Assembly: GCA_964524035.1 (NCBI GenBank)
Contig: CAZGBP010000001.1
Location: forward strand, 752 to 64,751
Direction of reading: 5' to 3'
DNA: 64,000 nucleotides
Source: an uncultured Bifidobacteriaceae bacterium
GTDB lineage: Bacteria; Bacteroidota; Bacteroidia; Chitinophagales; UBA10324
Shown here: positions 1 to 43,077 of the stretch, piece after piece
Layout: every line of letters begins with the position of its first letter
Position numbering within the stretch: position 1 is the stretch's first letter
Notes under the pieces: generated by a model
Seen by the model: the letters and a program-made list of their open reading frames with translations, nothing else
The model's database searches: none
What the model was told of the DNA's origin: nothing
Position numbers and translations under genes: made by a program

Positions 1-102
1 AATTGTTATTCCCTTGTAGTGAACAATACGCTCCTGCTGCAGGTATTTCTTTAATAGTGGCCTGAGAACATGATTGGCGAAAAGGCGGGTGATGGAAAAC
101 AT
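1..102 (-). CDS. 5' end (34 codons) of an unidentified gene running off the left window edge
   Basis: ATG at 102-100 on the minus strand, frame open to position 1 (MFSITRLFANHVLRPLLKKYLQQERIVHYKGITI...). Too short to classify. Not in the ORF track because it is under 60 aa. Confidence 0.25.
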   Translation of the reverse strand, partial: MFSITRLFANHVLRPLLKKYLQQERIVHYKGITI

Positions 103-168
103 AATGGGCGATATGGTAAGATAGGTGTTATTTATCTGGTAGCAAATACTGCAACACAAACAATCATT

Positions 169-495
169 TCAAAGACGTTACTTCCTTTGTCTTAAGCAGG
201 ATTTGAAGGATTTGCAGGATGACCATGATTATCACTTAGAATAGGTACTAATAATCCTGTCCATCCTTTAATCTTTCTAATCCTGTCAAAGACGTTACTT
301 CCATTGTCTTAAGCAGGATTTGCAGGATGACCATGATTATCATTTAGAATAGGTACTAATAATCCTGTCCATCCTTTAATCTTACTAATCCTGTCAAAGA
401 CGTTACTTCCATTGTCTTAAGCAGGATTTGAAGGATTTGCAGGATGACCATGATTATCATTTAGAATAGGCTCAACCTATCCTGTCAAAGACGTT
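169..495. repeat. Tandem repeat array 1 (units 169-285, 286-393, 394-484; truncated 4th unit 485-495)
   Basis: Read directly. Each unit starts TCAAAGACGTTACTTCC(T/A)TTGTCTTAAGCAGGATTTG. Unit 2 lacks one 9-nt AGGATTTGA sub-repeat. Units 1 and 2 carry an imperfect inverted repeat AGGATGACCATGATTAT / ATAATCCTGTCCATCCT; the distal arm is missing from the shorter unit 3. Confidence 0.9.
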
Positions 496-540
496 TTTTT
501 CATGCTGCCAAATACGCTATAGTTTCTGTACCCCATCCTC

Positions 541-945
541 TTATACCGGCTTTTTCTCGATTTCGGGATTGACAAGCTTCTTGTTATACACCCTTTTGAA
601 CTCCAGGCTCCTGCCACCAAAATTTATCAGTAGTCCATTGGCTAATCCATATGCTTCTAAATAATTTATAGCTTGAGTTTTGTGTACATCTTCAAGTAAC
701 ATCACTGCTTTAATTTCCACCATTACTTTTCCTTCTACAAAAAAATCAACCCGTCTTGTTCCGATATGCTGGGCTCGGTAAAAAATGTTCATTTCCTGTT
801 CGCGGATAAACTCCAAACCCTGGTATCCAAATTCAATCGCCAATGCTCTTTGGTAAATTACCTCCTGGAATCCGCTTCCTAGTGTATTATGTACTTTCAT
901 TGCACATCCAATGATACTATGTGTGATGTCATTTATCTTGTCCAT
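541..945 (-). CDS. GxxExxY family protein (PD-(D/E)XK nuclease-like fold, PDDEXK_3-type)
   Basis: 134 aa. Has G-F-Q-E-V-I-Y (GxxExxY) in LGSGFQEVIYQRAL and a D...E-x-K-like core (RRVDFFVEGKVMVEIK). Size and motifs are typical of this multi-copy family. Confidence 0.85.
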   Translation of the reverse strand: MDKINDITHSIIGCAMKVHNTLGSGFQEVIYQRALAIEFGYQGLEFIREQEMNIFYRAQHIGTRRVDFFVEGKVMVEIKAVMLLEDVHKTQAINYLEAYGLANGLLINFGGRSLEFKRVYNKKLVNPEIEKKPV

Positions 946-1115
946 AGCTTGTTGCTTTTAATGATATCAGAATATTATACAGGCTGATCAGGATTGTGTT
1001 CCCTTTTTTGTATTGATATGATTACTCTTTTATGATAGTATATTCATTGCCTTAGCCAAAATCTGGCTGACTAACTGGCTGATCATGATGATACTTAAAA
1101 TTTGACATATAAGTT

Positions 1116-1390
1116 AATCATGTCCATCCTATTAATCCTTCCCAATCCTGCTAAATAAAAGCCTCCAATACCGTAAGAATAATATATTCAGGATTATTAA
1201 CCAATGCTTCAACATTTTCAATAATCATGTCCATCCTACTAATCCTTTCTAATCTTGTTTAAGACAAGCCGCCGATACCGCAATAACAAGTTGTTCAGTA
1301 AAAGTAACCGCTGCTTAAACTTTCAATAATCATGTCCATCCTACTAATCCTTTCTAATCTTGTTTAAGACAAGCCGCCGATACCGCATAC
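1116..1390. repeat. Tandem repeat array 2 (units starting 1116, 1223, 1328; about 107, 105 and 63 bp)
   Basis: Units start AATCATGTCCATCCTA(T/C)TAATCCTT. Units 2 and 3 are identical over about 63 nt. The core is related to array 1 (AATCCTGTCCATCCTTTAATCTTTCTAATCCTG) and has the same orientation. Confidence 0.85.
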
Positions 1391-1487: not shown

Positions 1488-3080
1488 TCAAAATCCCTCT
1501 ATCTCCGGTTGTCTGTATTTCAGCCAGAATTTTTGCACGGCTTTTATCTCATAAGGAAACCGGTACCATTCCTGTTTATAACGAATGGCTGCCAACGCCC
1601 GGATTACTTTTTTATGGGTGGAAGATAGTTTGACATCGCTTACAGTGGGGTAATAGCCATTTAGAACCGTCTCAAAATTTTTGATCTTATCAATCATGTA
1701 TGGTTTCAGCCAGGGCGTCAACGGATTTTTGCGCAGATCAAAATTCTCCCATTGTGGTGAAATCCAGTCTTCCAGCTTTTGCGGGAAACGGAATCCCTGC
1801 TCTTTCACCTGATTATACAATGCAGACCCTTCTGTAGGTACCGGCGAATAAACATAGATGATGATCTCGGTAGCAGGATTGATAGTTTTTATTTCACGGA
1901 TAAATGAAATGTCCCCATCAATTTGCCGGTTTACTTCGCTTTCCGTTTCGGCCGGAGTACCCAATACAAATGAGTATTCAGGAATGATGTCAAACTTTGC
2001 CATTCTGGAGGCAAACCTGCGTATCAGCTCACCGCTTTGTGTTCCCCCTTTGTCCATTTTTCTGAGCATGGCATCATTACCGGTTTCGGCACCAAAGAAG
2101 ATCATCCTGCAACCGGCTTCGCGCATCGCCGCAATAGAATGATCATCATATTTGTCAATCGTATCAATTCTTCCTTCACCCCACCATTGCAACTGCTCTT
2201 TCGCTATCAGGCCTGAGAATTCAACCGTGCGCTTTTCTGATACGAAGAAGTTATTATCATGAAACTCAATGGCATCGCCGCCATAGTTTTCTTTCAGGAA
2301 TTTGATGTCTTTGTAAATGTTAACAGCTGATTTCCCTTTCCATCTTGCATTGTAAATGGGAACAATGCCGCAGAAAGCACACTTGAACGGACAGCCAATG
2401 CTGGAATGGTAAGCAATTGTTTGCCTGCCGAGGTACGTTTTTCCGAGATACTTCTTTATCGGATAATACCTGTCAAGACTGTCATATGGCAGTTCGGGTA
2501 ACTCATCCTGATCATAGAGTTCATCTTTAGTTGTTTTGATAAGCTTACCGTCATTAAGATAGATCAGGTTGTTGAGTGATTGAACAGGCAAACCGTTTTC
2601 AATGTGATCCAACAGGTCCGGGAAGGTCTTATCGCCGGGGCCATACACAATATAATCCACGTATCCGGATTGCAATACCACTTCCGGTTGATTGGATGCG
2701 AAGTAACCTCCCCATATGATGTTTATCCCGGGAAACAGTGCCCTTGCTTTTTTCGAATAGGGGATAGCCTGCTTTAGTTGCGGTCCGGGCATAACAGAAA
2801 GCGCAAAGTATTTGAAATCACCTCGTGACAGATAGTTCATCAATGTCTGCCAGGCATCTTCTTCCAGGTTACCATCCACCATGGCATAGTCATACTTCCC
2901 TTCAATACTTGCAGCAATCTGCAAAATGGAGTTGGGTATCCGTGCCTTGTAACGGGTAGCTCTTGGATTAAACAGCAGAACCTTGTTTGCGGAATCGGCA
3001 CGTAACATGCCGTAATTTACTAGGTATTTCTGAATGATACCTGAACGAGATTCCGGAGAATGCACGGCCATTTCGTTCAA
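1488..3080 (-). CDS. B12-binding domain-containing radical SAM protein
   Basis: 530 aa. CxxxCxxC cluster motif in SIGCPFKCAFCG, an N-terminal Rossmann-like B12-binding-type region, and a long C-terminal extension like the DUF4070-type tails of this class. Confidence 0.85.
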   Translation of the reverse strand: MNEMAVHSPESRSGIIQKYLVNYGMLRADSANKVLLFNPRATRYKARIPNSILQIAASIEGKYDYAMVDGNLEEDAWQTLMNYLSRGDFKYFALSVMPGPQLKQAIPYSKKARALFPGINIIWGGYFASNQPEVVLQSGYVDYIVYGPGDKTFPDLLDHIENGLPVQSLNNLIYLNDGKLIKTTKDELYDQDELPELPYDSLDRYYPIKKYLGKTYLGRQTIAYHSSIGCPFKCAFCGIVPIYNARWKGKSAVNIYKDIKFLKENYGGDAIEFHDNNFFVSEKRTVEFSGLIAKEQLQWWGEGRIDTIDKYDDHSIAAMREAGCRMIFFGAETGNDAMLRKMDKGGTQSGELIRRFASRMAKFDIIPEYSFVLGTPAETESEVNRQIDGDISFIREIKTINPATEIIIYVYSPVPTEGSALYNQVKEQGFRFPQKLEDWISPQWENFDLRKNPLTPWLKPYMIDKIKNFETVLNGYYPTVSDVKLSSTHKKVIRALAAIRYKQEWYRFPYEIKAVQKFWLKYRQPEIEGF

Positions 3081-4305: not shown

Positions 4306-5043
4306 ATGTTGAAGAAACTTTTCAGAATAAATACCTATCGCAGCATCAGCAGAAAACTCTTCCCATATAAGCGTTTAGCAGACGAATTTTATGATGCCCT
4401 GTATGTTTCAGTCAATGGTGCACCATTATTTGTTCCGGAGAACATCTATTGTATTGACCTGGCCATCCGTAACCTGCCAACCGATGATCCGGTAATCGAA
4501 ATCGGATCTTTTACCGGTATGTCAACCTGTATGCTCAGTCATTTCTTAGAAGTGTATCAGCGTCGCAATACCCTGTTCAATGTAGATAAATGGGAGTTTG
4601 AAGAAAAAGAGAAACTGTATTATAGCCGCGTATTGAAAGTATCGCCGGAAGTGATGAAGGAGTATATCAGGGAATCATTCATCAGGAATCTTAAACTGTG
4701 TTGCAGCTCCCGTCTTCCTGCTGCAATTGAAATGTTCTCTGATGATTTTTTTGAATGCTGGAATGAAAAAAAACCCTTGCTTGACATCTGGGGCAGAACC
4801 GTGATGCCCGGTGGTCCGATCAGTTTTGCTTACCTGGACGGAAACCATCAGTATGCATTTGTGAAGCGGGATTTCGGGAATGTAAACAAGTGGCTCGTTA
4901 AGGATGGATTTGTTTTCTTTGATGATTCAGACCCTGCTATAAAATCAGGTATACGGGATTTTGTGCAGGAAGGGAGCTGGAAAAACCAGTACGAACTGGT
5001 GGTGAAGAATCCCAATTACCTGCTGAGAAAAATCAGGAACTGA
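4306..5043 (+). CDS. Class I SAM-dependent methyltransferase (Methyltransf_24 / TylF-like)
   Basis: 245 aa. Glycine-rich SAM loop VIEIGSFTGMST, plus later AYLDGNHQY and FFDDS motifs typical of this MTase group. Confidence 0.75.
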   Translation: MLKKLFRINTYRSISRKLFPYKRLADEFYDALYVSVNGAPLFVPENIYCIDLAIRNLPTDDPVIEIGSFTGMSTCMLSHFLEVYQRRNTLFNVDKWEFEEKEKLYYSRVLKVSPEVMKEYIRESFIRNLKLCCSSRLPAAIEMFSDDFFECWNEKKPLLDIWGRTVMPGGPISFAYLDGNHQYAFVKRDFGNVNKWLVKDGFVFFDDSDPAIKSGIRDFVQEGSWKNQYELVVKNPNYLLRKIRN

Positions 5044-6286: not shown

Positions 6287-7357
6287 TCAGCGAACCGGAA
6301 ACGGATGTTTGAATAACTGGTTGTAATGCATCACTGTGTGAGACATGCCAGGCAAACTAACCGGCGAAAAATCGGGTTGCGGGTGATGCAGGATTTCTCT
6401 AAGCGCATGTACCATAGCTGCTCTATGGCTGCAAACATGCACCTTCGGATGATTGCTGATTCTGCCAATATCAAAGCAAACCACATACATGCCGGCCTGG
6501 AGGGCCTCGGTAATAACAGCCGGCTGTCCTTCAAAAAAGGAGGTATGCAATAAGATCTTGGCACGTTTCATTTTTTCAATCACCGCCTCTCTTTTTAGCT
6601 GTCCATTGATGGTAACTACATCGGTTAGTCCCAGTTCACTAATCAATTGCTCCAGGTGAGCCCTTTCGCTGCCATCGCCGGCTATTTCCACATGCAGCGA
6701 TTTGAATTCGTGCTTTACTTCCGCTATAATGCGTATTGCAAGAGCTGGCTGCTTCACCGGAATTAATGACCCGGCAAACAAGACATCAATATCCCTGCGT
6801 GAAACACCTGAACCGGGTAAAACAATATGATGTACTCCCATAGGAATCACCGCCCTGGTTTTTATGCCGGAGGCTGTTTTCAGTGCTTCTTTCATCTTAT
6901 CATTAAATACTACGATGGAAACAGTTACTGCAGCAAGCCAACGCAGGTATTTGTTTTCCTTTGTAACATCCTGTCCGGCAGCAACAGCTATCAGTTGTAC
7001 GCTGCTTACTTTCGAAAATAACCATCCAATCAGTGTTGCTTCCGTAAGGAAATAGGAAAGCACTACAGCCTGCTTGTCTTGCCGGATTTGCAAGAGGTAT
7101 CGGAATACTCTCAGCCAGACAGCTATCCTGTAAATTCCACCTCTGTCTTTCCCACCTGCAGCATACACTTGCAGGTTGTGCCACCGGTATTTTTTCGATT
7201 GATGGGGATATTGAAATGTGATGATATCAATTTTTATTTCCGGAAATGAAGTTTGCCATCCCAGCACAAAATCCTGCAATGTGGAAATACAACTGGTATC
7301 CAGTTCATCTGCTGGAAAACCCGGTGTGAGTATAATCAGTTGCCGTGCTTGACGCAT
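6287..7357 (-). CDS. Glycosyltransferase, GT-B fold (GT4/GT1-like)
   Basis: Start moved to ATG at 7357 (MRQARQLIILTPGFP...). The longer track ORF overlaps the upstream gene. E-x7-E motif in FFEGQPAVITEALQAG. Confidence 0.8.
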   Translation of the reverse strand: MRQARQLIILTPGFPADELDTSCISTLQDFVLGWQTSFPEIKIDIITFQYPHQSKKYRWHNLQVYAAGGKDRGGIYRIAVWLRVFRYLLQIRQDKQAVVLSYFLTEATLIGWLFSKVSSVQLIAVAAGQDVTKENKYLRWLAAVTVSIVVFNDKMKEALKTASGIKTRAVIPMGVHHIVLPGSGVSRRDIDVLFAGSLIPVKQPALAIRIIAEVKHEFKSLHVEIAGDGSERAHLEQLISELGLTDVVTINGQLKREAVIEKMKRAKILLHTSFFEGQPAVITEALQAGMYVVCFDIGRISNHPKVHVCSHRAAMVHALREILHHPQPDFSPVSLPGMSHTVMHYNQLFKHPFPVR

Positions 7358-13156: not shown

Positions 13157-13312
13157 GGGTACTTTGTAAATGGATAATTATAGCAGTCTCTTTAAATGGT
13201 TGAATGGTTGAATGGTTGAATGGTTGCGGCGAAGCCGATGAGTTTGAGGACAACAATTAAACAATTGAACAATTAAGCAATTGTGCAATTCAGTCATTTG
13301 ACCACTCAGCCA
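13157..13312. repeat. Diverged copy C of the MITE-like element, with (AATGGTTG)x4 and (NAACAATT)x4 arms around a CGGC-GAA-GCCG mini-hairpin
   Basis: Shares GCGGCGAAGCCGAT and the arm lengths with copy B. The left end TGGGTACTTTGTAAATGG resembles the copy A end GGGGTACTACAATTTGG. The rest has diverged into short-period repeats. Confidence 0.5.
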
Positions 13313-42925: not shown

Positions 42926-43077
42926 AGAGACTTAGGATGTAAGACTTAGGACTTAAGACGTTCATTGTCCAACGTCCTGCGTCCTATCTCCTACATCCTA
43001 TGTCCTACGTCCTATGTCCTATGTCCTACGTCTTACGTCTTATGTCTTATGTCTTACATCCTGCGTCTTAAGTCTTG
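42926..43077. repeat. Inverted heptamer array: about 5 TARGACN heptads, a 12-nt spacer, then 15 NGTCYTA heptads
   Basis: 42973-43077 reads as 15 consecutive heptads (CGTCCTG CGTCCTA TCTCCTA CATCCTA TGTCCTA CGTCCTA TGTCCTA TGTCCTA CGTCTTA CGTCTTA TGTCTTA TGTCTTA CATCCTG CGTCTTA AGTCTTG). 42926-42960 carries the complementary heptads. Confidence 0.9.

Follow-up and report, generated by a model that had tools for sequence, protein, structure and literature searches.

Intervening sequences (IVS) of the 23S rRNA that carry an open reading frame (ORF) are known in Leptospira and Coxiella, their S23p products being the proteins of family PF05635. Small genes are associated with repeats in other systems as well. 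RAYT (REP-associated tyrosine transposase) genes are flanked by repetitive extragenic palindromic (REP) sequences, and the attC sites of integron gene cassettes have the consensus boxes RYYYAAC and GTTRRRY. The GxxExxY (PDDEXK_3) proteins are encoded in multiple copies in many environmental bacteria and have, to our knowledge, no known function. In this study, we report a GxxExxY gene embedded in palindromic repeats in a stretch of 64,000 nucleotides (nt) from an uncultured member of the Chitinophagales (assembly GCA_964524035.1, contig CAZGBP010000001.1, positions 752 to 64,751), hereafter referred to as the window. We assign a probability of about 0.5 to the reading that this locus is an amplified copy of a widespread, selfish, IVS-like hairpin cassette carrying a Cas4/RecB-like nuclease.

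In Coxiella the IVS measures 428 nt and contains an S23p ORF, and RNase III cuts the 28-bp stem formed by its terminal inverted repeats; the element is considered selfish and acquired by horizontal transfer, and the distribution of IVS is sporadic (PMC4990558). The cassettes described here share with it a small ORF (about 120-140 amino acids) inside terminal inverted repeats with a stem of about 28-30 bp, and long inverted repeats around the ORF are also present in the window, where the arms 187-232 and 1221-1267 are about 85% complementary. They differ from it in their location, since the window locus lies between radical SAM and methyltransferase genes instead of in a 23S rRNA helix and GxxExxY cassettes are found in protein-coding operons or intergenic DNA. 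In addition, their cargo is a PD-(D/E)XK nuclease, their arms, made of 9-nt units, contain a motif that is conserved between phyla, and the cassette also occurs as gene-less hairpins and tandem arrays.

Inverted Arms Around GxxExxY Genes

In the orientation of the gene (the minus strand of the window), the repeats are composed of two mutually complementary types of arm, with ends resembling GTCTGAAC and GTTCAGAC. The consensus of the forward arm is GTCTTwrACAGGATTAGnAAGGATTAnTAGGATGGACAkGATTAT, of which the reverse arm, ATAATCATGGTCATCCTGCAAATCCTGCTTAAGAC, is an imperfect reverse complement. The arms are periodic with a unit of 9 nt, which has the form nnGATTnnn in one of them and nnnAATCnn in the other.

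These arms were sought around related genes in 80 metagenome loci, whose proteins were 60-79% identical to that of the window. Flanking inverted arms scored above the 95th percentile of the controls in 78% of the 79 GxxExxY genes that were scored, and the median inverted-repeat score of the flanks was 30, compared with 18 in control genes (Mann-Whitney p = 7e-19). The forward arm extends as far as the start codon, there is overlap between the reverse arm and the end of the gene (C-terminal tail and stop codon), and the termini MD(K/R)I... and ...NLVNPxIK, found in most of the 120 closest homologues, are the translated innermost nonamers. In some loci GAATT blocks replace the GATT blocks, and variable positions change jointly in both arms. 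When 2003 small ORFs were scanned for strong flanking inverted repeats, 38 were retrieved, and 27 of them were GxxExxY genes. Gene and arms form one unit and travel together; the proportion of armed homologues and the overlap of the arms with the start codon and the C-terminal tail bear out the original prediction in this respect.

Two of the remaining matches of the same scan encoded PF05635 23S-rRNA-IVS proteins (87 and 102 bits). One of these genes (locus L100) lies between an upstream stop codon and the next ATG and is bracketed by AATTGATAATGGATAATTGA and TCAATTATCCACTATCAATT, whereas the other (L084) has arms of the form (GTATCAAGT)n and (CTTGATAC)n. L100 is a type I restriction-modification operon in which a GxxExxY and a PF05635 cassette are found together (2501-2902 and 4601-4963), each with its own nonamer-type inverted arms abutting the neighbouring stop and start codons. 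In the loci retrieved, PF05635 genes located outside the rRNA resemble the GxxExxY cassettes both in their nonamer-periodic arms, which are of other nonamer types, and in their placement between a host stop and a host start.

Placement in Host Operons

The compact copies of the unit, which are often found in type I restriction-modification operons, are placed between host genes to the exact base. In 59 of the 71 evaluable loci, the upstream flank contained the end of a co-oriented ORF (90 codons or more) within 400 nt, at a median distance of 62 nt. For about 18 of these ORFs, by our count, GTCT(G/A)A itself provided the stop codon (TGA or TAA), and for most others the stop codon was within a few bases of the end of the arm. 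On the opposite side, an ORF of at least 80 codons started 0-7 nt past GTTCAGAC in 25 of the 48 loci with a recognisable reverse end (14 of 128 in the controls), typically with the sequence GTTCAGAC-A-ATG. Given that host stop and start codons abut the ends of the arms, the compact cassette takes up the interval from the stop codon of one host gene to the start codon of the gene that follows. The commonest neighbours were HsdM/HsdS (27 proteins), HsdR, FtsX/MacB permeases and RhuM.

For one compact cassette (L150), the minimum free energy and the centroid RNA structures both have a stem of about 30 bp around the entire ORF (z = -4.87). The interpretation of the arms as intrinsic terminators was rejected, as there were no terminator-like sites, and promoter-like sites were at chance level.

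Distribution of the Arm Motif

The 22-nt arm motif GATTA-N(1,2)-AGGATGGACAKGATTA was scanned in one genome per species (596 Gb). It was found in 87 stretches from more than 15 phyla, where about 1 would be expected according to our own arithmetic under equal base frequencies. The matches included an archaeal metagenome-assembled genome (MAG), Patescibacteria, Chloroflexi, Acidobacteriota, Verrucomicrobia, Planctomycetes, Armatimonadetes, Poribacteria, Nitrospinota, Spirochaetota, Ignavibacteriae, cyanobacteria, relatives of Beggiatoa, Desulfobacterales, Burkholderiales and many Bacteroidota; among isolate genomes, the motif was present in Spirosoma oryzae, Arsenicibacter rosenii, Chryseolinea and Microcoleus. 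Once aligned, the matches showed a (T)GTCTGAAC-like end, periodic GATT blocks and a complementary arm ending in GTTCAGAC(A). This complementary arm lies 10-130 nt downstream, and most matches are therefore stand-alone hairpins.

With a broad hidden Markov model (HMM) of the family, a GxxExxY gene was found on the strand of the motif and no more than 450 nt downstream of it in 9 of the 82 evaluable loci, and a narrower HMM gave similar numbers. Since about 90% of the matches are gene-less hairpins, the arms also persist without the gene. The original prediction had set against itself the case of a core motif scattered with no enrichment beside the gene, and this picture holds by half: most hairpins stand away from any GxxExxY gene, with the nine mentioned next to one. 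The gene-less hairpins are found mostly after the ends of genes, in either orientation. With respect to phages as vectors, a single match was obtained in 2.9 million viral contigs. As the arms flank most close relatives of the gene and are also found gene-less in more than 15 phyla, they suggest a selfish cassette that is widespread and apparently undescribed; searches of open-access papers and bioRxiv gave no account of them.

Several genomes gave two or three related matches. In the Anaerolineales genome HSG25 there were four copies of a palindromic unit of 175-185 nt in unrelated flanks (L022 at about 7150-7330, L061, L068 and L078), in which the GATT hairpin is enclosed by outer inverted repeats (AGTTTATCATTTCAACATGAC...); one copy is truncated. 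This unit looks like a miniature inverted-repeat transposable element (MITE). The arm system as a whole resembles MITEs and other palindrome-associated transposable elements in that short palindromic units are dispersed in unrelated flanks of one genome and the gene-carrying and gene-less forms have the same ends. It differs from them in the lack of a target-site duplication and of a recognised transposase family, and in the palindrome often continuing past the conserved end.

Two further observations were made on the arms. In some genomes, units of 9 or 18 nt form long runs, such as (AGGATGGACAGGATTAAC)n, which look like the product of slippage (L020, 26-140; L038, 5100-5330; L082, 7700-7900; L064, 1378-1440). 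At another locus (L090, 4473-5413 and 6887-7258), two arm hairpins flank a gene for a PF08780 protein (nucleotidyltransferase substrate-binding, HEPN-like), located upstream of a GxxExxY gene. Arm hairpins may thus bracket other small accessory genes.

Presence and Absence in Related Genomes

Orthologues of the radical SAM gene of the window were found at four loci (L003, L094, L095 and L099). L003, with a GxxExxY protein 90% identical to that of the window, is the orthologous locus, with the radical SAM gene, the GxxExxY gene and the methyltransferase gene, the last carrying the MTS domain PF05175. It has forward arms upstream and an array of reverse arms downstream. The comparison of unit numbers that had been proposed revealed three upstream units in the window and two in L003, an indel of about one unit, and the downstream unit of L003 differs from that of the window (period 93-103, about 3 copies).

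At L099, whose radical SAM protein is 76% identical, the methyltransferase gene directly follows the radical SAM gene, and the 215-nt spacer has neither GxxExxY gene nor arms. The insert is also absent from L094 and L095, in which both the gene and the arms are missing. Related genomes thus gain or lose the unit, and the insert of the window is found only in the closest relatives. The nearest orthologous locus having both gene and repeats and the more distant ones neither, this distribution agrees with the selfish or mobile cassette put forward in the original prediction. The flanks of the insert have diverged between these loci, and its boundaries are approximate.

Organization of the Window Locus

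The features of the locus are given in Table 1. Its GxxExxY ORF, for which the family models scored far above their cut-offs, lies between two tandem arrays, and the arrays themselves were recovered as described from the sequence: Tandem Repeats Finder reported them at 207-436 (period 108, 2.1 copies, 97% matches) and 1115-1387 (period 107, 2.6 copies, 85% matches), together with the 9-nt sub-repeat claimed for array 1 (198-220 and 423-445). The spacings between units, according to a repeat search of the region, were 108, 117 and 91 nt. The core AATCMTGTCCATCCT, allowing up to 2 mismatches, had 9 matches in the 64 kb (0.31 expected), 8 of them inside 216-1342, and a generic 9-nt-periodic GATT pattern also had 9 matches (1.2 expected), 8 of which fell in the repeat region. 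In view of these two distributions, the repeat element is real and unique within the 64 kb. No other arm hairpins were found in the remaining 62 kb of the window, and the covariance models of Rfam 15 gave no match in positions 1-1600 at E-values up to 1.

Table 1. Coordinates of the GxxExxY gene, the arms and the host genes in the window
Feature	Position	Strand	Evidence
Downstream host gene (start), MTS-type methyltransferase, truncated at the window edge; delimits the insert on one side	1..102	-	5' sequence conserved with L003
Truncated arm end AATCATTTCAAAGAC, closing the downstream array	162..176		Repeat family, 88% identity
Hairpin A; arms 189-232 and 252-293	189..293		Reading, repeat families, RNA fold
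Hairpin B; arms 306-340 and 359-401, loop of 18 nt	306..401		Reading, repeat families, RNA fold
Hairpin C, the first one 3' of the gene; arms 414-457 and 476-492, gene-proximal arm truncated	414..492		Reading, repeat families, RNA fold
GxxExxY/PDDEXK_3 gene, 134 amino acids	541..945	-	TIGR04256 (134 bits) and PF13366 (131 bits)
Decayed reverse-type arm, immediately 5' of the start codon	954..998	-	Aligns to TTCATCCTGCTAATGATTCTAATACTATTAAAGAC in L003
Decayed reverse arm, partner of forward arm 3; CAGCC/AGTC for CATCC/AATC	1049..1092	-	Aligns to the intact reverse arm of L003
Forward arm 3, upstream array; unit missing from L003	1115..1156	-	Window/L003 alignment, indel of about one unit
Forward arm 2, upstream array	1221..1265	-	Tandem Repeats Finder, repeat families, cross-phylum motif
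Forward arm 1, upstream array; minus strand GTCTTAAACAAGATTAGAAAGGATTAGTAGGATGGACATGATTAT; holds the cross-phylum motif	1326..1370	-	Tandem Repeats Finder, repeat families, motif
Putative decayed forward-like arm, minus strand ATGTACCAGGATTTGATTAAAGATGGC, beginning right past the radical SAM stop codon	1461..1487	-	Comparison by eye with the consensus arm
Upstream host gene, B12-binding radical SAM protein; other boundary of the insert	1488..3080	-	PF04055 and PF02310

The repeats had been described as satellite-like, but they are made instead of palindromic arms and hairpins. The downstream array (array 1) consists of hairpins C, B and A in tandem. The identical 12-nt spacers between the three point to tandem duplication, and the 108-nt units of hairpins A and B are 97-98% identical. 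As an RNA, this array folds better than 100 of 100 shuffled sequences (z = -3.98). The inverted repeat of about 17 bp reported in its units is present, as the central part of longer arms (about 43 nt). Array 2, upstream of the gene, comprises three forward arms followed by two decayed reverse arms, with a local hairpin predicted at the first of the latter in the RNA fold.

The direct orientation of the core shared by both arrays is as claimed, and the arrays share it in inverted orientation too. The stretches of 946-1115 that had been called degenerate versions (GGCTGATCA) are indeed related to the repeats; they align base for base with the intact reverse arm of L003, and the arrays are for this reason related in both direct and inverted orientation. 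In summary, the window holds an amplified and partly decayed copy in which arm modules have been tandemly duplicated.

Two other periodic elements were observed in intergenic regions of the window. At 42928-43076, just upstream of a DUF5916 gene, a heptamer (GTCCTAC/GTCTTAC) is repeated about 14 times and is preceded by an inverted partner, AGACTTAGGATGTAAGACTTAGGACTTAAGAC. Its single-stranded DNA fold beats 200 of 200 shuffles (z = -4.09), and it constitutes a second kind of periodic-arm palindrome in this genome. At 13195-13290, (AATGGTTG)x4 and (AACAATTR)x4-5 stand in this order, about 25 nt apart; this 8-nt-periodic pair of arrays may be a third palindrome-like element.

The Encoded Nuclease

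The protein of the window matched the GxxExxY model TIGR04256 with 134.3 bits (cut-off 35) and PF13366 (PDDEXK_3) with 130.9 bits (cut-off 22). The motif G25-E28-Y31 and the catalytic residues D67, E77 and K79 are present, and they are invariant or nearly so in the alignments. AlphaFold2 predicted an alpha-beta nuclease core with a pLDDT of 93 and a pTM of 0.85 when a diverse alignment was used in place of a shallow one (pLDDT 49). The best matches of the model in the PDB were the Cas4 proteins SSO0001 and Pcal_0546 (4ic1 and 4r5q), followed by nuclease domains of the RecB type, lambda exonuclease and MGME1, with weak matches to an RNA-splicing endonuclease and the Hjc resolvase. Sequence and profile searches of the PDB gave no solved structure, and no PHROGs or PADLOC profile matched the protein. 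The fold and the catalytic D...ExK are those of Cas4/RecB-family nuclease domains, but the GxxExxY protein is small (about 125 amino acids), has no Fe-S cluster module and reaches a TM-score of only about 0.5, and its gene is found outside any CRISPR context.

The family comprises 13,654 clusters at 50% identity (E-value up to 1e-3). Among its 150 best representatives, about 20 (P0243, P0267, P0270 and others, of 250-290 amino acids) have two GxxExxY domains in tandem. Such fusions suggest that the single-domain protein acts as a dimer.

Proposed Mechanism

In the cassette that we propose, the basic unit begins with a forward arm, made of the GTCTGAAC-like end and 2-4 nnGATTnnn nonamers, the last of which supplies the start codon (ATG GAC AGG ATT, translated as MDRI). 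The GxxExxY nuclease gene follows, and then the mirror-image reverse arm, which encodes the ...NLVNPxIK tail and ends in GTTCAGAC. In the transcript, both arms are predicted to pair into a stem of about 30 bp around the ORF, as in the 23S rRNA IVS, and the base of this stem would bring the stop and start codons of the host together. RNase III could excise the cassette, or the cassette could be bypassed, so that the host operon would suffer little harm. The Cas4/RecB-like nuclease probably acts on DNA, helping the cassette to spread or to be retained.

A number of results weigh against this reading. With respect to mobility, neither a transposase nor a recombinase was found, and there were no consistent target-site duplications beside the ends of the arms, the palindromes often running past the conserved end; any mobility of the cassette is thus putative. 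The copy in the window is not compact, in that arrays occupy about 540 nt between the end of the radical SAM gene and the GxxExxY start codon, and its upstream array has no excess stability over shuffled sequences (z = +0.37). As regards the scope of the data, most of the cross-phylum matches of the motif come from MAGs, the gene-side sample spans only relatives within the identity range given above, and the placement at stop-start junctions is mostly not seen for gene-less hairpins. Covariation, for its part, counts in favour of the reading, with two cautions. In 24 arm pairs, 19 of 32 positions had changed on both sides, and there were 77 covariation cells compared with 35.6 in shuffles (none of 500 shuffles was as high, and slid controls were far lower), but the pairs had been pre-selected for complementarity, and such covariation would be expected equally from a hairpin and from terminal inverted repeats to which a single protein binds. 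A test of strand asymmetry (G:U versus A:C) gave opposite signs in two data sets and was confounded by the ATGGAC asymmetry of the search motif; it was rejected as evidence for RNA over DNA, and as a consequence of this contradiction an RNA role of the arms is putative.

Alternative Explanations

The main rival is a relation similar to that of REP sequences and RAYTs. According to this explanation, the hairpins are the real mobile and amplifying units, like MITEs or REPINs (REP doublets forming hairpins), while the GxxExxY nuclease would bind and cut them, its gene being retained as one flanked copy. In both systems a gene for a small nucleic-acid-cleaving enzyme is flanked by palindromic repeats, which are also found without the gene and in some cases are clustered in tandem in the intergenic DNA that follows genes. 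The predominance of gene-less hairpins among the motif matches, the related copies at separate loci of several genomes (four in Anaerolineales), the similarity of tandem clusters such as array 1 to bacterial interspersed mosaic elements (BIMEs) and a DNA-nuclease fold with an intact active site all agree with it. Nevertheless, we consider this explanation rather unlikely. The enzyme is a Cas4/RecB-like PD-(D/E)XK protein of PF13366 and not an HUH Y1 (IS200-like) transposase. The copy number of the arms in the window is low for REPs, there being no further hairpin in its other 62 kb (some other organisms have several per genome). The motif is conserved across phyla, whereas REPs are species-specific, and the same architecture surrounds a gene for a non-nuclease four-helix-bundle protein. 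Finally, the arms overlap the coding sequence and abut the stop and start codons of the host, and we know of no REP/RAYT loci that do so.

At one locus (L108, 171-551), a small ORF is itself flanked by REP-like palindromes (ATACCTGACAGGTTTT...AAAACCTGTCAGGTAT). It was discarded as a RAYT control, given that its IS200/RAYT-like character was recognised by eye only and Pfam gave no match.

The other two explanations are less likely than this one. The hairpins could act purely in cis on expression or mRNA stability, as intercistronic stabilisers, in translational coupling or as protein-binding arrays, with no role in mobility, and the gene would then be an ordinary accessory of the operon. The fit of the cassette boundaries to host stop and start codons, the common orientation with the neighbours, the strong closing stem predicted and the absence of a recombinase nearby would be expected from such a function. 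It is improbable, however, in the light of a 22-nt motif that is nucleotide-identical across domains and phyla, of a presence that varies among related genomes, of gene-less copies in unrelated flanks and of the absence of terminator-like features. An integron-type gene cassette with attC-like sites in an integrase-less cluster (CALIN) is very improbable: although GTCTGAAC and GTTCAGAC resemble the attC boxes (with one extra base) and a small ORF with no obvious promoter, co-oriented with its neighbours, is flanked by imperfect palindromes of 60-160 nt, there is no recombinase domain in the eight nearest genes on the visible side of the window, the cassettes are single (in the window, one gene between housekeeping genes) and stand in housekeeping or restriction-modification operons instead of arrays, many stems are perfect with no extrahelical bases, the arms overlap the ORF, and the sequence of the arms, not just their structure, is conserved across phyla, which is not the case for attC sites.

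Significance of the Cassette

Beyond the selfish, IVS-like cassette itself, a broader proposal can be made, which we hold only tentatively and regard as doubtful at present. GxxExxY and IVS-protein genes would be the cargo of one unrecognised superfamily of selfish elements of operon junctions in Bacteria and Archaea. Their nonamer-periodic palindromic arms, folded in the transcript, would place the host stop and start codons side by side, or the element would be excised, which would make it almost harmless, and the minimal Cas4/RecB-like nuclease would cut arm or hairpin DNA for homing or copying. The classical IVS of the rRNA would be a special case of such elements.

The arms may also explain spurious peptide motifs in metagenome annotations (MDRINRMDRI... 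and ...NPVNPV). In addition, the cassette offers a route to the long-open question of the origin and movement of ORF-carrying rRNA IVS. It must be noted that GxxExxY is a very large family, and its members now have a defined nucleic-acid partner in the nonamer-periodic inverted arms. With these arms, a small nuclease of unknown role becomes a system accessible to biochemistry, for which the candidate substrates are the DNA of the arms, their RNA and the predicted stem.

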